Source of the DNA: an uncultured Anaerolineales bacterium
GTDB lineage: Bacteria > Chloroflexota > Anaerolineae > CG2-30-64-16
Length of the DNA stretch: 64,000 nt
Direction of reading: 5' to 3'
NCBI GenBank assembly: GCA_964513075.1
Contig: CAZELR010000007.1
Location: 22,208-86,207, forward strand
Shown here: positions 5,408-64,000 of the stretch, piece by piece
How positions within the stretch are numbered: position 1 is the stretch's first letter
Layout: every line of letters begins with the position of its first letter
The notes under the pieces: generated by a model
Database searches by the model: none
What the model was told of the DNA's origin: nothing
The model's input: the letters and a program-made list of their open reading frames with translations, nothing else
Program-made: the position numbers and the translations under genes

Positions 5408-6024
5408 GGGGTGCTTTCCTCTCTCTCATAATCTTCCGGCGTGTCCAGGTCCGCCAATACTGAGGCCGTGTCAACGACCAGGTAACGGATCCGGTCACGA
5501 TGGACGGCCATCACGTCGCGCAGGGTGCCGCTGCATGCCAGGATCTCCGGCCAAAGCCAGGCCGGCAGCAGGATGGGATGGCCGGCGCGCATCCGATAGC
5601 TGGGGATCACGATCCGCGTCCAGCCATCCTCGGCGCCGGCAGCTAAAACGGCTTGCACTGTGGCGACCTCCATCTGTGGCTGATCGCCCAGGCAAAGCAG
5701 CGCGGCAGGTGGAGGTAGGGGTGAGGCACTCCGTCGGAAGTTTGTCTCGCCCCTACTCAATGTGCCCAGCCCAACCTGGATCGAGCTGAGCATTTCGCCT
5801 GCAGCGTACTGTGGATTGAAAACAATGTGATTGGTATTGGAGCATAAGACCGCCCGCACGTCATCCGCACGATGGCCGGTGACGGTCACGATTTCGGATA
5901 CGCCGGCGGCTTCTAGCGTCGCCACTACTTGTCCGATGACCGTCGCATCACCCCAGGGCAGGGTGAGCTTGAACCGGCCCATACGGCGCGAAAGTCCGGC
6001 GGCGAGGACGATGGCAGAGATCAT
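5398..6024 (-). CDS. mocA: MobA-like NTP transferase, probable molybdenum cofactor cytidylyltransferase (MocA-like)
   Basis: 208 aa; MISAIVLAAGLSRRMG...KLTLPWGD N-terminus typical of the MobA/MocA nucleotidyltransferase fold; stop overlaps the proS start by 10 nt. Confidence 0.7.
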   Translation of the reverse strand: MISAIVLAAGLSRRMGRFKLTLPWGDATVIGQVVATLEAAGVSEIVTVTGHRADDVRAVLCSNTNHIVFNPQYAAGEMLSSIQVGLGTLSRGETNFRRSASPLPPPAALLCLGDQPQMEVATVQAVLAAGAEDGWTRIVIPSYRMRAGHPILLPAWLWPEILACSGTLRDVMAVHRDRIRYLVVDTASVLADLDTPEDYEREESTPCV

Positions 6025-9752: not shown

Positions 9753-10736
9753 CTATTGCATCTTGGCCGGGATTACTTCAGCCCCCGGCGCAACCGGGAA
9801 ATGCACCATGACCGACACGTCGGATTTCCCCAACATCGGCACGAACATTTTCACCAGGTTAATTACTTCTGCGGGTGCAGCGGCGTTCATCTTTGCGTAA
9901 ACGTCAATCGCGTTTTCCAGCGTCGTGCCATCCCAAGCCAATGTGGGCAGCGGTGTGCTGTTGACGAACAGGTGCAGCCCGTCGGACTGGGTGTGGATCT
10001 GGAAGTTCTGGACGTTGTTGGCCTGCAGCAACTGCAGATAGTTGGGCGCCATGGCCAAAGGCGCATTGCCGATCAGCCCTTGCAAGTCGCGAGCTGAGAT
10101 GCCGAGCACGGATGGGACTCCCTGCTCGTCGTACTTGATCTCGAACTGCACGACGGCCGTGGCCGGGTCACTTGACGGGGCCATCGCGGCCAGCTTGACA
10201 TTGATATCGCCATACGGGATCGGTTCGGCCCCTTCTCGCAGCGGGAACTTGGCCACCAGCGAGAGGCCCAGCCGCTGGACCATCGGCGCAAACTTCACGA
10301 CCAGGTCCTGGATCAGGGCCACGTTGGCGGTCGGGCCCAAGAGCGGGGCCAGGTCACCCACGCGCTCCAGCGAGCCATCTTTGAAGGATAGGCTGGGCAT
10401 CAGCGCGCCGTTCACCAGCACGGCGAGGCCGTCACCGGTGGAGCGCAGCTCGATGTGCTGGATGTTAGATGCGGCCATCCAGGTGGGGTAGTAGGGATCG
10501 ATGCGGTACTGCTCGAGGTTGAGCTCCATGCCCAGGGTTTTGGCAATATCCTCTACCGCGACCCCTTCGATCCCGGGTTTGCCTTGCTCATCGAATGAAA
10601 TGACGATTCGCGGCAACGCAACGACGAACGTCTCACCACTTTCGGTTTCCGGGGCAGCCGCAGGCACGATCGCCGGACCACATGCGGCGAGCAACAGCCC
10701 CACGATCAACAACAGAACTACGACAGAACTACGCAT
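9753..10736 (-). CDS. Lipoprotein, paralog A, internally duplicated domain (unknown function)
   Basis: Signal peptide plus lipobox LLAAC; two internal repeat halves (NIQHIELRSTGDGLAVLVNGALMPSL / NVQNFQIHTQSDGLHLFVNSTPLPTLAWD); paralogous to the next gene. Confidence 0.65.
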   Translation of the reverse strand: MRSSVVVLLLIVGLLLAACGPAIVPAAAPETESGETFVVALPRIVISFDEQGKPGIEGVAVEDIAKTLGMELNLEQYRIDPYYPTWMAASNIQHIELRSTGDGLAVLVNGALMPSLSFKDGSLERVGDLAPLLGPTANVALIQDLVVKFAPMVQRLGLSLVAKFPLREGAEPIPYGDINVKLAAMAPSSDPATAVVQFEIKYDEQGVPSVLGISARDLQGLIGNAPLAMAPNYLQLLQANNVQNFQIHTQSDGLHLFVNSTPLPTLAWDGTTLENAIDVYAKMNAAAPAEVINLVKMFVPMLGKSDVSVMVHFPVAPGAEVIPAKMQ

Positions 10737-10799
10737 TTTGACCCTCCATGTGAAGTTTGATGAAAAACTCAGATCGATAGGGCGGCCCAGGGCGCGCCC

Positions 10800-11759
10800 T
10801 TAATCGTGCATTTGGACTGGGATCGCCGCAGCGCCCGCGGCTGGCGGGAAGTGCAGCATGATCCCGACGTCGGCCCGATCCAGGGTCGGCAAGAACGCGT
10901 CCACTAGCGGCTTGAAAGCGCCCTCCGGTTGAAGCTGGCCGTAAACCTCGACCATGTTGGCCAGCAATTGGCTGTCCCAGGCCAGTGTGGGCAGCGGCTC
11001 ACCATTGGCATACAGATGCAGGCCGTCCGGCTTGTTCCGTATTTCCAGGTGTTGGATGTTGCCGGCCTGTAGCTGGGCTACTGTTGCGGGGGCCAGGCCG
11101 CCGATGCCGGCGCCGGTGAGGTTGGCCAGGTCCTGGGTGGTGACTCCCAGGATGCCGGGTTGACCGGCCTGATCAAACGTGACTTCGAATTTAGTGATCA
11201 GGGAAGCCGGGTCGGTGATGGGTGAGATCGTCAGTGCTTTGGCCGTGCCGGGTTTGCTGAGAGGAATCTCGGCCGCGTCGCCGCGTGGGAAGCGGAGCAC
11301 GACGTTCAGGCCCAGGCGCGTCACCCACGGCACTAGCTTGGCAATGGTGTCGGTGTTTTGGACGTTGAAAGCAGCCGCCAGGTCCAATGCACGCTGCATG
11401 CTGCCCTGGCTGAAGCCGAGCTGGGGCATCGGCTTGCCGTTCACCAGAATCACCAGGCGGTCACCCACTGCGGCGAGTTCGATGTGTTGGATGCCGGCCT
11501 TTGTCATGGTGTTGACCAGGTCCGGCGGCACTGCAAAGCTGGACACATCGACGCCCACTGCCTTCAGGAAGAGCGGGTTGATGCCTATGATACTGGGCAC
11601 GCCGCTCTCGTCCACGTCGACAACCAGGCGCGGCAGCGCAATTTGAAAAACCTCACCCGAGGGGGTTGCCGCGGCGCCGGAAGGTTGTGTCGGTTCGCCA
11701 CTGCACGCGGTCAGAAAAGCCAGCAGGACGACCAACGTGAGCCAAAAGGTTCGCTTCAT
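10800..11759 (-). CDS. Lipoprotein, paralog B, internally duplicated domain (unknown function)
   Basis: Start at ATG 11759 (MKRTFWLTLVVLLAFLTACSG; GGAGG SD with a 7-nt spacer); same two-repeat architecture (GIQHIELAAVGDRLVILVNGKPMPQLGF / NIQHLEIRNKPDGLHLYANGEPLPTLAWD). Confidence 0.65.
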   Translation of the reverse strand: MKRTFWLTLVVLLAFLTACSGEPTQPSGAAATPSGEVFQIALPRLVVDVDESGVPSIIGINPLFLKAVGVDVSSFAVPPDLVNTMTKAGIQHIELAAVGDRLVILVNGKPMPQLGFSQGSMQRALDLAAAFNVQNTDTIAKLVPWVTRLGLNVVLRFPRGDAAEIPLSKPGTAKALTISPITDPASLITKFEVTFDQAGQPGILGVTTQDLANLTGAGIGGLAPATVAQLQAGNIQHLEIRNKPDGLHLYANGEPLPTLAWDSQLLANMVEVYGQLQPEGAFKPLVDAFLPTLDRADVGIMLHFPPAAGAAAIPVQMHD

Positions 11760-11884
11760 TGAGCACCTCCGCACAGAGACGTATTGCCCGATGCTGACAG
11801 GGCCGTAGACTGCTTGTATCCCTTAGGAACAACTCATTGACAAGTCTACCACAGTTCAGCACGTTTTACAAGGGGGAAAATCCC

Positions 11885-14269
11885 CTACTTCTGTAATGCC
11901 CGCCACACCTTCTCACTGGTGATGGGCATGCTGTCGATGCGGACACCGACAGCGTTGAAGACCGCATTGGCGATAGCGGGCGCAGTGGGCACCATGGGGT
12001 GTTCGCCCACGCCGCGCGCCCCGAAGGGGCCATCATCCTGTGGCACTTCCACGATGATGCTCTCGGTTTCGAGCGGCGCGTCCACCGCGGTGGCAATCCG
12101 GTAGTCGGTGAAGTTCGGGTTGCGCGGCACGCCGTTTTGTAGGATGATGCCTTCTAGTAGTGCGGTGCTCATGCCCTGCACCGCGCCGCCCTCCATTTGC
12201 GTCCGCACCATCTCCGGGTTGATGGCCCGCCCTACATCGTAGGCCGACACGATCTTCAGCACTTGGACCTCACCGGTTTCATCGTCCACTTCGACCTCGA
12301 CCGCCTGGCAGCCGGTGGTGAAGTGCACCACGGCACGCGGCCCCTGGCCGGTCTCCGGATCCAGCGGCGTCACGTATTCCGGCATGAACTTGCCTTGGGC
12401 CACCACTGGTCCGCCGACCCAAGTGCCATCTGGCCGCTGCATGCCGTAGATGACGATGTCCTTGAGGGCCACGGACTCCTCGCTTCTGTAACTGACGACC
12501 TCGCCGTCGATGATGTCCAGGTCGTCGATCTCTTCGCCCCACGCCTGGGCCACGGTTTGCAGGATCTGGGCCCTGGCGTTCTCGGCGGCCTGCAGCACGG
12601 CGTTGCCCATGCTCCAGGTGAGGCGGCTCGCCACCGTTTGCCACTCGTAGGGACTGTAGTCGGTGTCTACAGTATTGACGCGCACGTCTGCCACCTTAAC
12701 GCCCAGCCCTTCAGCCGCGAGCTGGGCCATGGCGGTGAGCGCGCCCTGGCCGATATCGACGCCGCCAATGCTGACCGTGGCGGTGCCATCCTCGTTCAGT
12801 CGGACGACCGCACTGGAGCCGGGATTGGGCGGCATGGCCGGCGCCTTCCACATGGCTGCCAGCCCTTTGCCTCGACGTTTGTGGTCCCCTTCTCCGGGGC
12901 GGACAGAGGTTGGGGGTGAGGTCCACCCGATCGCTTCGGCGGCCTTGCGGATGCACTGGCTGAGCCCGGTGGGATGCATCTTCATGCCAGTCAGCGTCTC
13001 ATCGCCATCTTTCAGGCAGTTAATCAATCGCACTTGCACCGGGTCGAGCCCCAGCTTCTGGGCCATCTGGTCGATGTGCTGCTCGATGCCCCAATGGATC
13101 TCGGGCATGCCGAAGCCGCGCATCGCACCGCCGATCGGATGGTTGGTGTAGACGCACATGCTGTCTACGTGGATGTTGGGCACGTAGTACGGGCCGGTGC
13201 CGCTGTAACCGGCCGCGCGGGTGATGTTGGTGCCGTACTCGGTGCTGGCGCCGCCATCCCAGTAGAAGCGATTGTGCATCGCCGTGATGCGCCCATCCCT
13301 GGTCATGCCCATCTTGATGTGGGCTACCAGCCCTTGGCGTACGAAGGTGGTGTAGAATTCCTCCTCCCGCGTCATGCGCAGCTTGACTGGCCGGCCTTTG
13401 GCGTGCATCGCCAGCGCGACAGCCGCGCCTTCTATGCTGATGCCTGCCTTGCAGCCGAAGCCGCCGCCCACGTAGGGCGTGATCACGCGCAGCTTGCTGT
13501 GGCCGATGTGCAGCGCTTTAGCGATCAGGTTGCGCTGGGCAAACGGCGACTGGCTGGAGGACCACAGCGTGATCTTGCCGTTGACATCCTGCTGGGCGAC
13601 GCAGACGTGGGTTTCCAGCGGCACGTGCTGGATGTGAGGCACGCGGTATTTGTGTTCGTAGATCAGGTCCGCCTCACCCCAGCCCTTCTCCATGTCGCCC
13701 TTACGCACTTTCATCCAGTTGGAGATGTTGGTGCCGGGTTGGGGGAAGATGAACGGCACGGCCTCATAGCTGGCCAGTTCTGGATGCACTAACGGCGCTT
13801 CCGGGCTGGCTCCGTATTCGGGATCGAACACGCCGGGCAGCGGCTCGTATTCGACTTCGATCAGCTCCAGTGCCTGCTGCGCGATCTCCGGCGTGTCGGC
13901 CGCAACCGCGGCCACTGCGTCGCCCACGTAGCGGACACGATCCAGGGCAAAGATGCGTCGATCCTTCAGGTACAGCCCGGTGTAGCCGGGGAAATCTTGC
14001 CCGGTCACCACAACCCGAACGCCCGGCAGTGCTCTGGCCCGGCTCACATCGATCCGTTTGATCAGACCATGGGGGATCGGGCTGTGCTTCAGCATGCCGT
14101 GCAGCAGGTTTTGGCCGAACTGCATATCGTCCACGTACGTGGCCGCGCCCGTCACCTTCTCGCGGCCCTCGATGCGTTGAGGGCTTGTGCCAATGAGTGA
14201 GTGTTTGGCGTGCTGCGTGCCAGGTGTCGCGTGTTCTGGTTCCGCTGATTTGCTGATTCGCTGGCTCAT
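11885..14269 (-). CDS. Xanthine-dehydrogenase-family molybdopterin-binding large subunit (CoxL/XdhA-like Mo-hydroxylase)
   Basis: 794 aa; aldehyde oxidase/xanthine dehydrogenase a/b hammerhead plus Mo-binding domains; active-site loop GGAMRGFGMPE (XDH-like, not the CODH AYRCSFR/AYRGAGR); overlaps the small-subunit stop by 4 nt. Confidence 0.9.
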   Translation of the reverse strand: MSQRISKSAEPEHATPGTQHAKHSLIGTSPQRIEGREKVTGAATYVDDMQFGQNLLHGMLKHSPIPHGLIKRIDVSRARALPGVRVVVTGQDFPGYTGLYLKDRRIFALDRVRYVGDAVAAVAADTPEIAQQALELIEVEYEPLPGVFDPEYGASPEAPLVHPELASYEAVPFIFPQPGTNISNWMKVRKGDMEKGWGEADLIYEHKYRVPHIQHVPLETHVCVAQQDVNGKITLWSSSQSPFAQRNLIAKALHIGHSKLRVITPYVGGGFGCKAGISIEGAAVALAMHAKGRPVKLRMTREEEFYTTFVRQGLVAHIKMGMTRDGRITAMHNRFYWDGGASTEYGTNITRAAGYSGTGPYYVPNIHVDSMCVYTNHPIGGAMRGFGMPEIHWGIEQHIDQMAQKLGLDPVQVRLINCLKDGDETLTGMKMHPTGLSQCIRKAAEAIGWTSPPTSVRPGEGDHKRRGKGLAAMWKAPAMPPNPGSSAVVRLNEDGTATVSIGGVDIGQGALTAMAQLAAEGLGVKVADVRVNTVDTDYSPYEWQTVASRLTWSMGNAVLQAAENARAQILQTVAQAWGEEIDDLDIIDGEVVSYRSEESVALKDIVIYGMQRPDGTWVGGPVVAQGKFMPEYVTPLDPETGQGPRAVVHFTTGCQAVEVEVDDETGEVQVLKIVSAYDVGRAINPEMVRTQMEGGAVQGMSTALLEGIILQNGVPRNPNFTDYRIATAVDAPLETESIIVEVPQDDGPFGARGVGEHPMVPTAPAIANAVFNAVGVRIDSMPITSEKVWRALQK

Positions 14270-16498: not shown

Positions 16499-16564
16499 TC
16501 TTGACTGACGTTTCATGATTTGCCAGTCAGGAAGCATTCTACACGGCAGTTACGCAAATGTCAA
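16499..16564 (-). promoter_or_regulatory. Consensus sigma70-type promoter TTGACA-N17-TAGAAT for vapBC, plus a CTGACTG-containing palindromic putative operator between the -10 and the start
   Basis: On the - strand: TTGACA (reverse complement of 16559-16564), 17-nt spacer, TAGAAT (reverse complement of 16536-16541); imperfect inverted repeat CTTGACTGACG...GCCAGTCAG at 16499-16530. Confidence 0.5.
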
Positions 16565-26814: not shown

Positions 26815-26891
26815 AGTATAGCATCGTCTCTGCGTTTTCGGCAAGTAGCGCGCGGAAGGAATTGTCAAGCCGGTTTATATTTGCTATACTC
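26815..26891. promoter_or_regulatory. Divergent overlapping promoters: + strand TTGTCA-N17-TATACT for the giant gene; - strand TTGCCG-N18-TATACT ending 6 nt before the LysM-CAP ATG (leaderless?)
   Basis: + strand: TTGTCA 26863-26868, 17-nt spacer, TATACT 26886-26891. - strand: TATACT is the reverse complement of 26815-26820. The TTGTCAAGCCGGT...TATACTCAT module recurs at 33200-33231. Confidence 0.45.
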
Positions 26892-26992
26892 ATTCGCGCC
26901 TTATGGTGACGCGTGCAGCACCGGCGTCTAACCACTGACCCTCCTCGTGCCGTTCGCGCCGCGTTGTCTGTTCCTGGACAAAGGAGGCGCAT

Positions 26993-33130: not shown

Positions 33131-33199
33131 GACGGGAGCTTTGGGCTCAGATCTTGCCAGCGTATCGCCAGCGTATCGCCAGGGCATCGGTCGAAGGTG

Positions 33200-33228
33200 T
33201 TGTCAAGCCGGTCGAAGCTTGATATACT
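33200..33228 (+). promoter_or_regulatory. Promoter TTGTCA-N17-TATACT, 7 nt upstream of the ATG (leaderless mRNA likely)
   Basis: TTGTCA 33200-33205, 17-nt spacer, TATACT 33223-33228, ATG 33236; shares the 13-nt TTGTCAAGCCGGT and the TATACTCAT with the 26863 promoter. Confidence 0.5.
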
Positions 33229-33235
33229 CATAATC

Positions 33236-56848: not shown

Positions 56849-57193
56849 TTACACATCCGCGCGGCGCAAGCTGTCCTCGGATGTATACCCGTTCGGATAA
56901 CGCACTCTTAATTTCTCGATGTTGGCTTGCATGATGGCCGACAAGTCCAAGCCCAGTGTGGTGCAGAGCGCAGCCACGTACCAGAGCGTATCGCCTAACT
57001 CTTTTTCCAGCTTTGGCAGGTCAATGCCGTGCCGGTGAAATACGCCCTTCTTGATGTGGTCGGCAACTTCACCGGCTTCTCCCGCCAGGCCGATGGCGTC
57101 CCAAACCGCCATGATTTCAGTGTCGGAGATGGCGAAATTCGGCCGATCGATCAATGTACGCGCGGCCAGTTTTTGATATTCATCTGCATCCAT
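56849..57193 (-). CDS. MazG-like nucleotide pyrophosphohydrolase (small all-alpha NTP-PPase)
   Basis: 114 aa; EAGEVAD...ELGDTLWY motif pair. Confidence 0.7.
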   Translation of the reverse strand: MDADEYQKLAARTLIDRPNFAISDTEIMAVWDAIGLAGEAGEVADHIKKGVFHRHGIDLPKLEKELGDTLWYVAALCTTLGLDLSAIMQANIEKLRVRYPNGYTSEDSLRRADV

Positions 57194-57265
57194 GGGCTCT
57201 CCGAAGGCGTACGCTGAGCAGTAAATGACTCCCTGCCCGTCGGCTTGGCTTCAACTGGTGGCGGG

Positions 57266-58081
57266 TCAAGCCTTGTCTTTGTCGCCTCGTTTGGCTTTGC
57301 CTGCCGGCTTGGCTGCTGCGATCGCTGCCAGGCCGCGTTCGGCCTCCTGCAGCAGGTCCGCCATGCAAGCCAGCCGGGCCTGCCGCTTGTCCTCGGCCTC
57401 GATGACGCGCCAGGGATAGGGTTCCCCCGTGCGTGCCAGGATTGTCTGCCGCACCTCTGCCACCGGCATCGGCGCAGCCGCATCCTTGCCCGCCGCGTGG
57501 ATTGCACCGGCCTTGCGGAGGTCCTCGAGGTGGGCGCGGAAGCGGGCATCCTGGGTCTCATCGCCTGCCGTAAACCAGTACTTGATCAGCGTGACCCCCG
57601 AAGCGGCCAGCCCACGTTCGAACTCGACGCACTTGTCAAGGAACGCTGCGAATTCCTCGGGCTTCATCATGCCGCGCGCGGTGTCCATCGCCGCCAGGTG
57701 ATACCAGCTCCCGTCCAGGATCAGCAGCTTGCGGCCTTGGGCTATCTGGTCGGCGAAGTGCCGGAAGTGCTGCTTCGCGCTGTCCCGCTTGCTGTCATGC
57801 TCCAGCGTGAGCACTTCGCAAGCCGACCGCTGCAGGCTCTCGTCGATGCGTTTCGCTGTGGCGCCCTTCCCGGCCGGCCCCAGCCCTTCCAGCAGCACTG
57901 CCACGTGCATGTGCTTATGAGTGGCCCACTCCTGCAGCTTGACCAGCCGCATTTGCAGGGTTGCCAGCTCCTCGCGGTAGCTCTCTTTATCCAGGGCGGC
58001 CGAGGGGTGCGCACCGGCTTCCGGCTGCCCCGGCGCGCCTTCGGCGGACGGCGCGGCAGTCGCTTTGTTCTTCTTGCTCAT
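57266..58081 (-). CDS. Polyphosphate kinase 2 (PPK2) family phosphotransferase
   Basis: 271 aa; Walker A-like EGLGPAGKG and PPK2 lid region; AAGGAG SD. Confidence 0.7.
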   Translation of the reverse strand: MSKKNKATAAPSAEGAPGQPEAGAHPSAALDKESYREELATLQMRLVKLQEWATHKHMHVAVLLEGLGPAGKGATAKRIDESLQRSACEVLTLEHDSKRDSAKQHFRHFADQIAQGRKLLILDGSWYHLAAMDTARGMMKPEEFAAFLDKCVEFERGLAASGVTLIKYWFTAGDETQDARFRAHLEDLRKAGAIHAAGKDAAAPMPVAEVRQTILARTGEPYPWRVIEAEDKRQARLACMADLLQEAERGLAAIAAAKPAGKAKRGDKDKA

Positions 58082-58146
58082 CGGGACTCCTTTTAATTCT
58101 CTTGCTTCCCCAGGCTTTTGTTTGCCCAGCTATTATATTATACCAG

Positions 58147-58632
58147 TCAATACTTCTCCCAATGAAGCACCTGCTCTAGTGGCTTTTTCGCCGGCGCCGG
58201 CTCTTCTGCCGGTGCGCCCACAGGGATCAGCGCCATCAGGCGCTTCTCTGGCGGCACGCCCAAGAGCATCTTGAACTGCTTCTCGCGCGGTAAGGCATCG
58301 CCTTCCACCCAGCACGCCCCATAGCCCAATGCAGTGCTTGCCAGCAGCATATTCTCGATTGCAGCCGCGCCGTCTTCCACCCACCAGCGGGATGCCGGAT
58401 CCATGACGACCGCGATCACTGCGCCGGCTTGCTCCATCCAGGGGCCGGCCACCTTGAACTGCTCGATCATCGTCCGGTCGGTCACCACGATGAAATCCCA
58501 GGGTTGCCGATTGCTCCCCGTCGCCGCCAATCGGCCGGCATCGACGATGGCCTCCAGATCCGCCACAGGAACGGCATCCCCCGTGTACCTGCGGATGCTT
58601 CTTCGCTTGCGAATTGCTTCCAGTGTGTCCAT
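58147..58632 (-). CDS. Nitroreductase-family (FMN) protein
   Basis: Start MDTLEAIRKRRSIRRY (58632); RRSxRxY FMN-binding motif. Confidence 0.8.
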   Translation of the reverse strand: MDTLEAIRKRRSIRRYTGDAVPVADLEAIVDAGRLAATGSNRQPWDFIVVTDRTMIEQFKVAGPWMEQAGAVIAVVMDPASRWWVEDGAAAIENMLLASTALGYGACWVEGDALPREKQFKMLLGVPPEKRLMALIPVGAPAEEPAPAKKPLEQVLHWEKY

Positions 58633-58655
58633 TTTACTCACTCCATATCCCATCA

Positions 58656-58925
58656 TCACGTTGCACGCGTTCGAATAGACTCTCGACTAGCGCGGCCTGC
58701 GTCGAGCCTCCTTGGCAATGTCATTCTAAAATAGGTCTGCAACACAAACGCCATGTTGATGTCGCTTGTGCGCAGCCGGGGATCATCGAGTGACCAGGGA
58801 TTCACGCGCCAAACATCGTCCCCGTCAAGCCAGGCGGAGTTGTCCAGGCGCTTGAAGAGTATCTCAGCGCAGGTGCTCTTGCCGGTCCAGGCTTCGCCTC
58901 CTATCAGGATCAGCTTGGGTTTCAT
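58656..58925 (-). pseudogene. Short P-loop NTPase/kinase-like ORF, possibly truncated or frameshifted
   Basis: MKPKLILIGGEAWTGKST Walker A, but only ~90 aa with an atypical C-terminus; normal family members are ~170-190 aa. Confidence 0.3.
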
Positions 58926-58990
58926 GCCGTTATCATCACATTTCAATCCCTGGCGACGCCAGCCGGCCGGCTTCACCCTTCGGGCTGAGC

Positions 58991-59287
58991 CTAATGCCGC
59001 CGTGACGACGCCCGGCCGCCTCCGCCCCAGATCGCCGTGATTCCCAACAGAAAGCCGGCGACATACCAATTCCCGTTGTTGTGCACCTCCCACACGTGCA
59101 CCTTGTCCGAGAAGAGCGAAATGACGAACGTCACCGGCGCAATGATCCCGTGCCAGAGGCCCTGCCAGAAGCCCGCGACCTTGCCCTCTTCGTTCGGCGT
59201 GTTGACCTGCGGGTTTGGACCGGCCACGCAGCCCGCTAACACGACGAGCGCCAGCACCAACAGCGTCACCCTGAGCATGGTCTTCAT
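58991..59287 (-). CDS. Small lipoprotein/membrane protein, hypothetical
   Basis: 98 aa; signal peptide plus lipobox LAGC, then a hydrophobic helix. Confidence 0.5.
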   Translation of the reverse strand: MKTMLRVTLLVLALVVLAGCVAGPNPQVNTPNEEGKVAGFWQGLWHGIIAPVTFVISLFSDKVHVWEVHNNGNWYVAGFLLGITAIWGGGGRASSRRH

Positions 59288-59799
59288 TGGATAATCTCCT
59301 GCGACCTAAGTATCCTGATCATCGTCCACGAGGCAGCGACTGCCGCGTGCCGGACGAAGCCGAAACGCTCGTACAACCGCAGCGCCGGGTTGTCGCCCTC
59401 GACGCTGAGACTCAAGCGGCCGATGCCAAGGTTGGTCGCCTGATCGATCAGCGCCGCCAGAAGCGCGGTCCCGACGCCGCGGCCGCGCCAGCGCGGGTCC
59501 ACCCCGATGCCCAGCTCCGGGCAGTCTGCGTCGACGTAGCCGTAGGAGTGCTGGGTGTCGCTCCAGTATCGGCGCCACGCCGCACCGACAGGGCCCTGGG
59601 CCGTCTCAGCCACGACGGCAGCGTCCCCGGCCCGGCCCCATCCTTCCAGCAGATACGCGTGCCTCGTCTTTTGGATCACGTCTTCGGGATCGGATGCCGG
59701 CTCTGGCGAGCGCCAATCGATTGCCCAGGCCAGCGCCGAGCGCAGTGCGCCAAGGTCGTCCGCGGTCCCAAGCCGAACGCGGAAGTCGGGAGCTGACAT
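59284..59799 (-). CDS. GNAT-family N-acetyltransferase
   Basis: 171 aa; motif A RGRGVGTALL...; 4-nt overlap with the downstream gene. Confidence 0.8.
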   Translation of the reverse strand: MSAPDFRVRLGTADDLGALRSALAWAIDWRSPEPASDPEDVIQKTRHAYLLEGWGRAGDAAVVAETAQGPVGAAWRRYWSDTQHSYGYVDADCPELGIGVDPRWRGRGVGTALLAALIDQATNLGIGRLSLSVEGDNPALRLYERFGFVRHAAVAASWTMIRILRSQEIIQ

Positions 59800-59820
59800 T
59801 TGGGTATCTTCCTCCCCTGT

Positions 59821-60426
59821 TCAAGACACCCATACCATCACAATTGCCAAGAATCCAAGGATGGCTGTTGCTGCTGGAAAGGTGGTAGACGTCAAGCGCT
59901 TAGCCAATGTGAGAGTGTCCGTGGGGTAGTGGTCGGTCCACCAATGTTCAGGGAGAATAGCAGTTTCTTCTGCCGAATCAAAGAAACCCTTATCGTAGTA
60001 GTGGAGCAATCGGTCGATTCTCTGAATTACGGCGCCATTCTCCCTTTGCCACCTGCGATTTCGATTTTGCCATCGTATCGAGAACCAGACCAAGACTAAT
60101 ACTGTCATTGACGCGATAGTCTTCCCCCATACGCCATACGCCAGCCAAACGGCGCCTTCAGAGGGTTTGACGATAAGGAGAGCCCCAATTAGCACTAATA
60201 GGATATTGCTTGACCAACTGAAAACGTTTTGCTCGCGCTCGTGCCGACTTCTTACTTCGGCACGCTGTATGAGTTCCATGTGCTTGAGTAGATCAATCTT
60301 GTCTCCTATGCTAAGGCTTTCGGATTCATTCATTCTGTTGCCCCCATTTCGCACATATTGTTCGGTGGACATGACTCTTGAGTGCTTGCCCATAATTCGA
60401 CAACCGTCCGGACGATTAGGGTTCAC
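59821..60426 (-). CDS. Hypothetical 3-TM membrane protein (low-GC islet, gene 2)
   Basis: ORF in a ~49% GC segment; start uncertain (MSTEQYV or MNESESL); TM helices at LLVLIGALLIV, MTVLVLVWF, AILGFLAIVMVWV. Confidence 0.45.
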   Translation of the reverse strand: MNPNRPDGCRIMGKHSRVMSTEQYVRNGGNRMNESESLSIGDKIDLLKHMELIQRAEVRSRHEREQNVFSWSSNILLVLIGALLIVKPSEGAVWLAYGVWGKTIASMTVLVLVWFSIRWQNRNRRWQRENGAVIQRIDRLLHYYDKGFFDSAEETAILPEHWWTDHYPTDTLTLAKRLTSTTFPAATAILGFLAIVMVWVS

Positions 60427-60569
60427 TTGCGGCTGCGTCAGCGAGCTTGCCGCGGCTCACAGTGCGATCGGGGCGACTGCCAGGAGGATGGCGAGGTTAG
60501 GCCCCCGCTCCTAACCACACCCAACTCATGCCGCCGCGATGTGCGGCATGATGGCTGAGCAGAAACGCA

Positions 60570-61016
60570 TCAAGTTAGGGCTTCGGCTAACTCGAAGACA
60601 GTGTCGTAGAATTTCAGCAGAGTTGTGAAAGAAGGCTTATCGTACAAGAGTAGCGTTCCGGGAAAGCCAGATACGCGACCGTGCTCAAGCTCTCGTTGCA
60701 TCTGTGCGATTCTTTGCTTTAGCATGGGGATTGACAGTTCAGCCATCTTGTCCAAAGACTCAGCCCACGTGGCAAGGGGAACCGCTCCCTGATTGAGTAC
60801 CAAGTCTCTCACATTTCGGTTGCCTTTGATCAAATCGCGAATGCCGTCGGTTATTTGACGCGTTATCTCGATTGCCTCCAATCGCAAGAGATGGTCACGC
60901 TCGGTGTCTGATTTACAGTCCGTCAACGCATCCATCAGCGCTTCACGGTAGGCGGCAACAGCCACATCTGTAGTCTGTCTCGCTTTGTAGAACTTCTCGT
61001 GGAATACTGGAGTCAT
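60570..61016 (-). CDS. Hypothetical all-helical cytoplasmic protein (low-GC islet, gene 1)
   Basis: 148-aa ORF in the low-GC segment, downstream of the consensus promoter at 61190-61218 via a ~167-nt leader containing a 5-codon uORF (MGIRT) whose TGA overlaps the ATG. Confidence 0.45.
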   Translation of the reverse strand: MTPVFHEKFYKARQTTDVAVAAYREALMDALTDCKSDTERDHLLRLEAIEITRQITDGIRDLIKGNRNVRDLVLNQGAVPLATWAESLDKMAELSIPMLKQRIAQMQRELEHGRVSGFPGTLLLYDKPSFTTLLKFYDTVFELAEALT

Positions 61017-61189
61017 GTCCTAATGCCCATGATTTTGTGCCCCTCCAAACGCGGTCTTGGCCTAACGAATTAAGGATTTCACGCGGCGCACCGTGGGTCC
61101 TGCGTCGTGCTGCCCAGGGGCGGACCGCCCATAACACATCACAGCCAGACATGCGGTCGAAAGCCGCAAGCTTGTTTGCCACGGTTGCC

Positions 61190-61218
61190 ATTGTAAGCCA
61201 GCGTCCCGAGGCTGTCAA
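61190..61218 (-). promoter_or_regulatory. Consensus promoter TTGACA-N17-TACAAT (- strand), near-identical copy of the flotillin promoter
   Basis: TTGACA is the reverse complement of 61213-61218, 17-nt spacer, TACAAT is the reverse complement of 61190-61195; ~30/33 nt identical to 63654-63686 (CTTGACAGCCTYGGGACG..GGCTTACAATG). Confidence 0.55.
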
Positions 61219-61329
61219 GAGATTTCCCGCGGCAAGCAAATTGACGCCTTTCCGAAGCACCAAGACTATCACAATAATCAAAACTATCCGGACGCAATAA
61301 CAGGCAGCATCATCAGGAAGCAAGATGGG

Positions 61330-61425
61330 GATGACGCTTAAGCATAAGTAACCTTATCTTGCCTATCTTGCCCATCTTGCTATGCAGGTCGTTAGGGGCA
61401 AGATAGGCAAGATGGGCAAGGTGAG
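61330..61425. repeat. Imperfect inverted repeat built from ATCTTGCC/GGCAAGAT heptamer-like units (3 direct units facing 4 inverted units)
   Basis: CTTATCTTGCCTATCTTGCCCATCTTGC ... GGCAAGATAGGCAAGATGGGCAAGGTGAGGATGAGCAAGATGGGCAAC; lies just 3' of the flotillin stop (61570) and 5' of the islet promoter. Confidence 0.6.
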
Positions 61426-61569
61426 GATGAGCAAGATGGGCAACCATCCTATGGCATGGAGTCGGAGGCTTGTATTGTCGTTTGGGTTGCGGTGCACCGA
61501 CAAGAGGCCCTGGAAATCAAAGATGAAATCCAAGGCCTCTCTGTTTCTGCTTTCGTTCCGGGAGTCGAG

Positions 61570-63573
61570 CTAAGCCGGCTTCCCCTCCGACGACGTTGGC
61601 CCGGCCCCCTGCCGGCTCTCCTTGAGGCCCTCGAGGATCTGAGCCCGCAACTGGTCCGCCTGCGGGTTCGGTTCTCGCTGCCCAGCGGCGCTCACTTCCA
61701 GGCCCAGCTTATCGGATAGCAGGAGCGTCAACAACCCTTCCATCACGCCGCTGCTGGTCGCAGTGCCCCCCGCGCCGCCGATCACCACGCGCGGCACCAC
61801 GTCCACTCTCGACTGTTGCACTGCTTCGGCAAAGCGGTTCATCACCTGCTGCGTGACCTGGAACTGCGGGCCGCCGTAGGCCGCCACCTGCTCCTCGATG
61901 GCGATGGCCTGGCCGATGCCGACGCGGGCGGTCTTTTCGGCCTCTGCCTCGGCCAGGGCGCGTATTTGGGCCGCCTGCTGCAGCGCCCGGGCATATTCGG
62001 CCTTGCCCTGGTTGCTCTGTACCGTGATGCTCAGCTCAGATTCGGTGATGTTGCGCTGCTGGTCTGCGCGCGCCTGTGCCTCGCGCAGATCTCGTTCCTT
62101 CGCTGCCGCTGATTGCTGCCGGGCATAGGTCTCGATCTGCTCGACAGCGATCTGCCGGGAGCGCAGTTGGTTCAGGATAAGCTCGAACTGTTTGTCCTCG
62201 GCCATCGCGACCGGCGTGCCGATCAACACCTCTTCCAGTTCCAGGTTATAGTGTGCGAACCTTTCCTTCATCTCCTGGCTCGAAATCTGCTGGATGTTGC
62301 CGCGCTCCTGGATGAGCTGGATCAGCGTGCGCGTCTGGCCGATGTTCTTGAAGTAGGCCGACACCATGGGGTCGAGGGTCTGCTCGACCAGCCGTTTCAC
62401 GTCGCCGAAGCGCTGGACCACCAGGGGCGCCTTGCGGTAGTCGATGTGCATGACCACCGACAGCGGCAGCGACGGCTCGAAGGCGTCCTTGGTGATCAAT
62501 GAGATCTCCGCCAGGTTTTCGTCGAAGTGGTGCGAGCCGACCTGGCCGCGGATCCACTTCAGGATGACGTTGGTGGTGGGCACCGGCACGACCTTGCCGG
62601 CGTAGGTGTTGAACGCGTACTTGCCCGGCATGAGCGGCGCATCCCACACGCCGCGATGGCCTCTCTCCACCAACTCGCCATGCCGATAGTCATCGCCCGA
62701 CAGGTCACGGCCGGCCTCGCCGGTGTAGAAGACCACCACGCCGACGGTCCCGATTTCGATGATGGTCTTGGGGATCATCTCCACCGTGGCAAACAGCCGG
62801 TTGAGATAGTAGGTGCCTTCGACCAGGACCTGCAACTGGCGCCCTCGCAGGCCGCCGGCCTTCAGGAACCGGTCGGGCGCCTGGAAGTTATTGTGATACG
62901 TCTCCACCTCGGTTGGGTCACCGCCCACGATGGGCGCGATGATCTCGCCCGGCGACAACGAGGGTCCGTCGTGAACCGTCACAATGCCGGTCTTGTCGTC
63001 CTGATCCTTGAGCACCACCGGCCGAAAGCCGTCACGCTCGCCGATCACCTTGGCCATATTCTGGATGACCCCTTCTTCGGCGCGGTTGAGCGGCAGGTAG
63101 TAGACTTTTTCCTCGGTGATCACGATGAACTGCGCCAGGTTGATGGCGTAGGTGCCCTCGCGCAGGATTTGACGCTGTGGTCCGCGCTGGCCGCCGTCTT
63201 GCAGGAACGCAGCGACATCCTGAAAGTCATTGGCGGTAACGTTCGAAGCCAGCACCTGCATCGGCTCCAGTGGATGTCCATCGCGCGCAAAGACGTAGCC
63301 GATCTTGCCCTGGGTGATGGTCACCAGGGGCGAGCGGTGGACGACATACTGGATCGGCATCAGGTAGTGCAGGCCCCCGCGCAGCAGCTTAGGCTGGAAG
63401 CCGGCCTCTCCCTTGAGCGCGATAAAGCCGGTTTTGATGGATTTGGCGCCGAAACGCTTTTCGACGATGCCAACGCGGTTGTTGGGGATGAAGCGAATGC
63501 CCGACAAGGCGAGCAACACCAGCGCAGCTAACACCGCCAACGCGAGGATGAGAAGAATTGTTCCGATATCCAT
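61570..63573 (-). CDS. Flotillin-family SPFH-domain protein (YqiK/FloT-like)
   Basis: Start at ATG 63573 (MDIGTILLILALAVLAA; AAGGAGG SD with a 7-nt spacer); SPFH core plus long EA-rich coiled-coil region; the ORF-track start at 63606 adds 11 aa. Confidence 0.85.
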   Translation of the reverse strand: MDIGTILLILALAVLAALVLLALSGIRFIPNNRVGIVEKRFGAKSIKTGFIALKGEAGFQPKLLRGGLHYLMPIQYVVHRSPLVTITQGKIGYVFARDGHPLEPMQVLASNVTANDFQDVAAFLQDGGQRGPQRQILREGTYAINLAQFIVITEEKVYYLPLNRAEEGVIQNMAKVIGERDGFRPVVLKDQDDKTGIVTVHDGPSLSPGEIIAPIVGGDPTEVETYHNNFQAPDRFLKAGGLRGRQLQVLVEGTYYLNRLFATVEMIPKTIIEIGTVGVVVFYTGEAGRDLSGDDYRHGELVERGHRGVWDAPLMPGKYAFNTYAGKVVPVPTTNVILKWIRGQVGSHHFDENLAEISLITKDAFEPSLPLSVVMHIDYRKAPLVVQRFGDVKRLVEQTLDPMVSAYFKNIGQTRTLIQLIQERGNIQQISSQEMKERFAHYNLELEEVLIGTPVAMAEDKQFELILNQLRSRQIAVEQIETYARQQSAAAKERDLREAQARADQQRNITESELSITVQSNQGKAEYARALQQAAQIRALAEAEAEKTARVGIGQAIAIEEQVAAYGGPQFQVTQQVMNRFAEAVQQSRVDVVPRVVIGGAGGTATSSGVMEGLLTLLLSDKLGLEVSAAGQREPNPQADQLRAQILEGLKESRQGAGPTSSEGKPA

Positions 63574-63653
63574 GATCCTACCTCCTTGGGACACATGATC
63601 CGTCATAGTTGGATATGTGATTGAAAGTTGCGATCTTTTTTGCCACCACTGAC

Positions 63654-63682
63654 ATTGTAAGCCGCCGTCCCAAGGCTGTCAA
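63654..63682 (-). promoter_or_regulatory. Consensus promoter TTGACA-N17-TACAAT for the flotillin gene
   Basis: TTGACA is the reverse complement of 63677-63682, 17-nt spacer, TACAAT is the reverse complement of 63654-63659; ~70-nt leader to the SD. Confidence 0.55.
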
Positions 63683-63708
63683 GCGGTTTTGCTGACACCC
63701 GGCCCCCG

Positions 63709-64000
63709 CTACCGCCCTAATCCCCCCAACGCCGCAACTCCGAACCCGACGATGATCCCCCCCGAGACCCGGTTGACCCACAGCAGATGCCGGCCATCCA
63801 GCCTGCCGCGCAGCAGGCTGACCCCCGCGCTGAGCATGAACCACCACGATGCCGAGCCCAGGAATACGCCGAGCACCACCGCAGCCGCGGCCGCGTAGCC
63901 GTTGACCGTGCGGCCCACGCCCAGGCCGGCAAAGACCGCCATGAATGCCAAGATCGTCATGGGGTTGGTGAGGGTCAGCAGCAGGGTGGAGAGGTACGCG
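63709..64000 (-). CDS. LysE/RhtB-type translocator, 3' (C-terminal) part; continues beyond the window
   Basis: Hydrophobic multi-TM sequence with a Gly-rich LysE-like C-terminus; the frame stays open to position 64000 on the minus strand. Confidence 0.5.
   Translation of the reverse strand, partial: AYLSTLLLTLTNPMTILAFMAVFAGLGVGRTVNGYAAAAAVVLGVFLGSASWWFMLSAGVSLLRGRLDGRHLLWVNRVSGGIIVGFGVAALGGLGR

Follow-up and report, generated by a model that had tools for sequence, protein, structure and literature searches.

Why should two promoters in one genome share not only their recognition boxes but also most of the spacer between them? The question is raised by a 64-kb stretch of DNA from a bacterium that its protein matches assign to the Anaerolineae (Chloroflexota); the whole of this stretch is called the window here. 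On its minus strand, a putative promoter upstream of a flotillin gene (copy A) is nearly identical to a second one located downstream of that gene (copy B). A sequence-only reading of the window had put the likeness down to either a recent duplication of a promoter cassette or an additional factor that reads the spacer. We read A and B instead as paralogous copies of one sigma-70/SigA-type promoter with its leader, derived from an old segmental duplication, and give this interpretation a probability of roughly three in four.

Two copies of a promoter-bearing repeat

On the minus strand, the sequence from 63690 contains AAAACCGCTTGACAGCCTTGGGACGGCGGCTTACAATGTCAGTGGTGGCAAAAAAG (copy A) and that from 61226 contains GAAATCTCTTGACAGCCTCGGGACGCTGGCTTACAATGGCAACCGTGGCAAACAAG (copy B). 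The 31-nucleotide (nt) motif CTTGACAGCCTYGGGACGNNGGCTTACAATG was found exactly twice in the window, at 63653-63683 and 61189-61219, both on the minus strand, which confirms the earlier observation of two look-alike promoters that each carry TTGACA-17-TACAAT. No third site was present in the 64 kb with up to three mismatches allowed, and none of 100 shuffled sequences gave a match. The housekeeping sigma-70/SigA consensus is TTGACA-N17-TATAAT. Both copies agree with it at 11 of 12 positions, a score reached by only three sites in the window, of which they are two. The elements of the two copies are as follows.

63594-63689, minus strand: copy A, promoter with the 5' leader of flotillin for about 55 nt; supported by motif, repeat and profile matches, with orthologues in the related loci L098, L099, L100 and L101
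63682-63677, minus strand: -35 box TTGACA of copy A, followed by the spacer (63676-63660) and the -10 box TACAAT (63659-63654)
near 63646, minus strand: predicted transcription start of copy A
61130-61225, minus strand: copy B, promoter with proximal leader; supported by motif, repeat and profile matches, with orthologues in L099, L101, L102 and L103
61218-61213, minus strand: -35 box of copy B, followed by the spacer (61212-61196) and the -10 box (61195-61190)
near 61183, minus strand: predicted transcription start of copy B
61071-61129, minus strand: distal leader of copy B, homologous to the long A leader kept in L099 and lost from copy A of the window

The near-identity described earlier stands, with 28/31 core positions and 14/17 spacer positions identical, but the figure of about 30/33 was slightly generous and the unit is larger than the 33 nt or so that had been proposed. 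The likeness extends without gaps into the predicted transcribed leader, where 39 of the 64 nt after TACAATG are identical; the window background for such a comparison has a mean of 15.4, a standard deviation of 3.4 and a maximum of 31. A repeat search of the window found one direct repeat of 96 nt here (61130-61225 and 63594-63689) with 73% identity, its copies lying 2464 bp apart with the flotillin gene between them. The repeated unit in the window is the promoter together with the first 55 nt or so of the transcript. Neither terminal inverted repeats nor target-site duplications were found at the ends of the 96-nt repeat.

Conservation at both positions in related loci

Six loci (L098 to L103), reached via members of the 90% cluster of the GNAT protein, align colinearly to the window, with 83-95% nt identity. 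Window and loci have a common layout, consisting of a LysE gene, promoter A, the flotillin gene, a variable segment, the GNAT gene and a gene of 98 amino acids (aa). Copy A has orthologues in L098, L099, L100 and L101, and copy B in four of the six loci, namely L099, L101, L102 and L103.

The variable segment changes from locus to locus. In the window it holds an array of 9-mers, copy B and two ORFan genes, which are open reading frames (ORFs) of 148 and 201 aa. An XhoI-type endonuclease and an N4/N6 methyltransferase take this place in L098 and L100, which have no copy B, and in L099 an NspV-like gene, a methyltransferase and a 355-aa gene come after copy B. L101, L102 and L103 have a remnant of the 201-aa ORF, 69 nt long, between copy B and the GNAT gene. 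In L101 this remnant (5723-5791) is 91% identical to window positions 60279-60211.

The retention of copy B upstream of the GNAT gene in the relatives, even in L101 where most of the segment was lost and the -10 box is only 127 nt from the GNAT start, makes it a conserved feature of the locus. Nucleotide homology with the relatives picks up again 12-36 nt upstream of the GNAT ATG, so that the GNAT gene probably depends on transcription from upstream. Copy B is predicted to be the conserved promoter of a unit that ends in the GNAT gene, with the low-G+C genes as cargo between the two; the 'islet operon' placed downstream of copy B in the sequence-only reading covered this unit incompletely.

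Extent and age of the duplication

The region upstream of copy B in L099 aligns to the region upstream of copy A over 193 nt (72% identity, E = 3e-29). The alignment takes in roughly 100 nt from the 3' end of the LysE coding region, and the copy located before B carries an in-frame stop. Window positions 61225-61071, which comprise copy B and its distal leader, match copy A with its long leader in L099 (2643-2798; 75.6% over 156 nt, E = 1e-24). This match of the B leader to a long A leader indicates an ancestral leader of about 150 nt, about 80 nt of which would since have been lost from the A leader in the window, L098, L100 and L101. As judged from these alignments, a segment of at least about 290 nt was probably duplicated, made up of the LysE end, intergenic DNA, the promoter and the leader.

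Since both copies occupy orthologous positions in diverged relatives, the duplication is not recent, and it appears to predate the split of all sampled lineages, with one copy on either side of the flotillin gene. The earlier proposal of a recently duplicated promoter cassette was thus right about the duplication, but not about its recent date, nor about its size, as the LysE end and the leader were included. The presence of LysE coding sequence inside the duplicated unit agrees with a local segmental duplication and not with a mobile repeat.

The history can be pictured as follows. The segment 'LysE 3' end - promoter - leader' would have been duplicated long ago, probably in tandem, so that two copies came to flank the flotillin gene. 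RNA polymerase with the primary sigma factor would bind TTGACA/TACAAT at the 17-nt spacing in each and start about 7 nt downstream, producing from copy A a leader of about 74 nt with flotillin, and from copy B a leader of about 165 nt with the genes of the flotillin-GNAT interval and probably GNAT too. The identity of the A and B spacers would be residual identity by descent, with no second recognition element.

Search for further copies

A profile built from eight copies and run with filters off gave 73.9 and 73.4 bits for the two window sites, and 5.2 bits for the next best. Run on other loci, related and unrelated and about 350 kb in total, the same profile found the known copies only. The exact pattern had no match in the GTDB species representatives (one genome per species), the JGI metagenomes or IMG/VR. 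A degenerate pattern, TTGACAGNCNNGNNNNGNNGNCNTACAATG-N7-TGNCAAANANGNTNG, matches seven of the eight known copies, missing only copy A of L101 with its extra A, and also had no match in IMG/VR. The only identical copies of A found outside the window are in Logan contigs, two short ones from SRR12133403 and SRR12133404.

These searches bear on the view that A and B belong to a dispersed family of promoter-bearing repeats and merely happen to fall inside the window, which we consider highly improbable. Close or moderate homologues of the genes downstream of A and B do occur elsewhere without the cassette, and a Logan contig begins inside copy B (around 61216), perhaps at a branch in the assembly graph. 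Set against this, every relative that has the copies has them at the same two positions, two per locus at most, and none was seen elsewhere in the 64 kb, in about 350 kb of related loci or in the collection scans. The unit moreover includes LysE coding sequence, and the terminal inverted repeats and target duplications of a mobile element were not seen.

Several other candidates were discarded. A promoter conserved upstream of flotillin across the Anaerolineae was not supported, the upstream regions being unrelated in 80 GTDB orthologue loci; the closest non-syntenic flotillin orthologues likewise have upstream regions unrelated to the cassette. A supposed third family member at 16564 gave nothing with the family profile, and its spacer match (6/17) is at chance level. 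The heptamer TGGCAAA occurs ten times on both strands of the window, and three of these sit 9-11 nt downstream of the -10 boxes of the three best promoters (16519-16525, 61175-61181 and 63639-63645, all on the minus strand).

A second look-alike promoter pair was noticed on the plus strand, at 26855-26893 and 33193-33231 (GAAGGnnTTGTCAAGCCGGT...TTGnTATACTCAT, 31/39 identical). It precedes two adjacent co-oriented genes, a 2045-aa ORF without a Pfam match and a DUF2254 membrane protein, and its likeness ends at the promoter.

Constraint on the hexamers and on the spacer

Eight copies, seven of them distinct and representing about five independent lineages, were available for a count of variable columns. 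No hexamer column varied (0/12) and 11 of the 17 spacer columns did (Fisher p = 4e-4), with the spacing at 17 nt in all eight copies. Downstream of the -10 box, variation was found in 6 of the first 7 columns and in 6 of the next 17. Constant hexamers with a freely varying spacer are the textbook pattern of constraint. Their occurrence here speaks for functional promoters of the housekeeping type, and against recognition of the spacer by a further factor. Comparative evidence of this kind suggests that both promoters function.

Among the orthologues of copy A, spacer differences range from 2 to 7 of 17 positions. By our estimate, about five lineages that each lie about 10% from their ancestor would leave about half of the columns invariant without any constraint, and the spacer keeps six. 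Spacer conservation among the orthologues did not exceed the neutral expectation. The spacer is thus probably unconstrained and the high identity between A and B reflects descent, which leaves the spacer-reading factor proposed earlier at odds with the variation observed.

A broader version of that proposal, in which a factor reads the shared spacer or the early leader and makes the flotillin gene and the downstream unit a small regulon, is very unlikely. It could draw on the six invariant columns of the spacer and the GGGAC present in five of the seven distinct spacers, on the element (G/T)TG(G/A)CAAA(A/C)A(A/C)G just past the start site, which is fairly conserved in all copies, and on the retention of both promoters in several lineages. 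The spacer nevertheless varies in columns where the hexamers never do, and it has fewer invariant columns than the half or so estimated to arise by chance. Orthologues of copy A that are only 8-9% apart at the 4-fold sites of flotillin already differ at 2-4 of the 17 spacer positions (4/17 between L098 and the window), no consistent palindrome is present, and no third site was found in the window or in the loci of the relatives. Co-regulation or co-expression of the two units is plausible in a simpler form, from the same near-consensus promoter and proximal leader, which would give each unit an equivalent strong promoter, and nothing points to a dedicated regulator.

Some observations weigh against the duplication as we read it. 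Pairwise distances between the copies are star-like and do not cleanly separate A from B: A and B of the window differ at 10 of 51 positions, and the A copies of the window and L099 at 13 of 51. The age of the duplication is for this reason unclear, and occasional gene conversion between the copies is possible; a tree of A versus B, tried for dating the event, was uninformative with such distances. A duplication reaching into the flotillin coding sequence left no significant trace at the end of the B leader, where a candidate relic of the flotillin start codon (ATGGGCATTAGGACA at 61030) was equalled by 322 of 2000 shuffles. Six spacer positions and the G after the -10 box are invariant, and about five independent lineages are all that the comparison rests on. 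More copies elsewhere in the genome are possible, the DNA scanned being the 64-kb window and about 350 kb of other loci.

The flotillin gene in other contexts

From its ribosome-binding site to near its stop (61597-63588), the flotillin gene is also present, 90-95% identical in aa sequence, in no fewer than six unrelated neighbourhoods (L003, L083, L084, L090, L091 and L104), where it is accompanied by toxin-antitoxin genes, MmeI-type restriction-modification systems, helicases and two-component systems. In L003 and L104, homology at the nt level sets in precisely at the ribosome-binding site, at 63587/63588 of the window. Divergence at the 4-fold sites of flotillin is about equal for L003 (0.11) and the syntenic relatives (0.09). 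From these comparisons the gene looks like a promoterless module that is exchanged horizontally.

This raises a second route to the same arrangement. In a Campbell-type integration, a DNA molecule, circular or linear, with 'LysE end - promoter - leader - flotillin' on it would have entered by homologous recombination. The acquired flotillin gene would then lie between direct repeats, and the original promoter would precede GNAT, the old downstream gene. The mobility of the flotillin module and its greater conservation (94-95% nt identity among the syntenic relatives, against 83-92% for its flanks) speak for such an event. Its product, however, is the same as that of a tandem duplication after which the second flotillin gene was lost, and the present data fit both equally; no integrase, transposase or att-like core was seen adjoining the repeats, and the event is older than the split of all sampled relatives. 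We regard integration as a possible but rather improbable origin of the repeats.

Another suggestion goes beyond the old segmental duplication that we prefer. Copy B may have been selected as a resident expression platform at the edge of a gene-exchange hotspot, driving promoterless arrivals without an integrase, with flotillin likewise being cargo behind copy A. We consider this unlikely. If true, the ORFan pair of the window and the NspV-type restriction-modification set of L099 would be genes expressed from copy B.

Gene content of the locus

The genes and structures around the two copies are listed below.

63709-64000, minus strand: 3' end of a LysE-family translocator gene, with about 26 nt from its stop to the -35 box of copy A
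61570-63573, minus strand: flotillin (YqiK-like SPFH protein) of 667 aa, with PF01145 (Band_7), downstream of copy A
61503-61540, minus strand: long hairpin directly after the flotillin stop, read from the sequence and kept in relatives
61352-61426, no strand assigned: hairpin made by an inverted 9-mer (ATCTTGCCN) array, each arm being 29 nt long (61352-61380 and 61398-61426)
59812-61410, minus strand: variable segment of about 50% G+C between flotillin and GNAT, which contains the two ORFan genes, copy B and the repeat array
60570-61016, minus strand: 148-aa ORF without family assignment, the first gene downstream of copy B, with homologues at 48-61% identity
59821-60426, minus strand: predicted membrane ORF of 201 aa without family assignment, the second cargo gene
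59284-59799, minus strand: GNAT acetyltransferase, the conserved gene on the far side, 21 nt beyond the 201-aa ORF

The flotillin start at 63573 is preceded by AAGGAGG and lies about 74 nt from the predicted transcription start of copy A, and the N-terminus MDIGT agrees with that of the orthologues. The hairpin at 61503-61540 is likely the flotillin terminator. Copy B follows about 350 nt past the flotillin stop and about 165 nt ahead of the 148-aa ORF, in a region (59800-61500) where the G+C content falls to about 50%.

The 9-mers, in direct and inverted orientation, span 61319-61443. Synteny of L098 and L100 with the window breaks inside this array, at 61411, and L101 is without it; the array may mark a recombination or insertion boundary. 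Two Logan contigs from SRR12133403 and SRR12133404 (L092 and L001) end at the -35 box of copy B (around 61216) and at the 9-mer hairpin (61352). The stretch in between, 61217-61351, was not covered by Logan contigs, which fits strain-level variation or repeats at this point.

Just upstream of copy B, 61247-61275 forms a weak direct repeat (21/29) with 59816-59844, where the 201-aa ORF has its 3' end, and this repeat may be the relic of a further duplication of cargo. As a relic of the 3' end of that ORF the match was rejected, the local alignment being marginal and equalled by 29 of 1000 shuffles. In L100 alone, an IS110-family transposase (10692-11933) is inserted between the GNAT gene and the 98-aa gene, which is further evidence of a plastic neighbourhood.

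A Pfam scan of all ORFs in 56849-64000 identified LysE, Band_7, GNAT, nitroreductase, PPK2 and MazG, and no integrase. Neither the 148-aa nor the 201-aa ORF matched Pfam, NCBIfam or PADLOC. The one homologue of the 148-aa ORF whose contigs were examined (P0122, in L093 to L097) is located 22 nt past another gene and without the cassette. In these contigs the homologue is 59% identical, the preceding gene encodes 318 aa, and the neighbourhood contains genes for AbiEii, an NB-ARC/TPR STAND NTPase, NUDIX and TIR-domain proteins. This setting hints that the ORFan cargo may be defence-related. A defence role for flotillin and cargo together was not retained, as it had no PADLOC or NCBIfam match and the label would be a guess.

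The leader

A riboswitch or other leader RNA was considered and rejected for want of an Rfam match, a folding signal and covariation. Rfam gave no match at gathering score over the window, and at E <= 1 only microRNA models matched, spuriously, on the unrelated 9-mer hairpin. The leaders folded no better than shuffled sequences (z from -0.45 to +0.26), and the consensus fold of seven leaders reached -1.4 kcal/mol with an unfavourable covariation term. For the two long leaders a common fold was predicted in which three pairs are compensatory, a number too small to count. Antisense pairing was also discarded: a 13-nt complement of the B leader to flotillin codons at 62783-62795 is at chance level in the window (E 0.23), and better matches in other loci are explained by 80 homologous genes.

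A 23-nt block, ATCCAACTATGACGGATCATGTG, is identical in copy A of the window (63597-63619, minus strand) and of L099 (2718-2740), where the surrounding leader differs by about 25%. Within the block are a small palindrome, ATGA-CGGA-TCAT, and an ATG that shares the reading frame of flotillin.

Significance and comparison with known systems

The feature is ordinary and its history well resolved, and current understanding is unchanged by these results. They do advise caution, as near-identical promoter spacers within one genome need not imply a hidden regulator, and a few relatives were enough to settle the case. The locus also provides an example of a duplicated promoter retained as the putative driver of a variable gene segment, and comparative support, of a kind that is rare, for promoters of the sigma-70 consensus type in uncultured Anaerolineae. 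To our knowledge, promoters in the Anaerolineae are essentially unmapped; a literature search for promoters of this class in the Chloroflexi, judged by titles, found no matching title.

Correia elements of Neisseria are dispersed repeats that carry promoters. Like the present repeat, they are short and supply adjacent genes with a promoter, but here there are only two copies, at orthologous positions in relatives, with host coding sequence in the unit and without terminal inverted repeats.

In integrons, the Pc promoter expresses promoterless cassettes. Copy B is similar in that it is a resident promoter at the edge of a segment with changing genes, be it an ORFan pair, an NspV-type restriction-modification set or next to nothing. 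The locus is not an integron, however: the Pfam scan showed no intI-type integrase near copy B, L098 and L100 replaced the segment together with copy B, and the only large hairpin (61352-61426) is the 9-mer array upstream of B and does not lie between cargo genes.

Integration hotspots and defence islands between conserved core genes have been described in the E. coli pan-genome (PMC10121019). The fixed flotillin-GNAT interval is comparable, as it holds differing restriction-modification or other cargo in close relatives, but it differs in that the segment has no mobile-element genes and the cargo of the window is without a PADLOC, Pfam or NCBIfam match.

As predicted from sequence, copies A and B are like canonical sigma-70/SigA promoters, with a perfect -35 box, five of six positions in the -10 box, 17-nt spacing and the right place and orientation upstream of genes, and nothing material differs. 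The arrangement around them resembles the relics of segmental or tandem duplications, in which direct repeats, here 2464 bp apart, flank one gene, and the fragment of upstream coding sequence in the unit decays as a pseudogene, as it does in L099. What is peculiar to this locus is that several lineages kept only the promoter-bearing part of the duplicated unit, the remainder having been deleted or overwritten.

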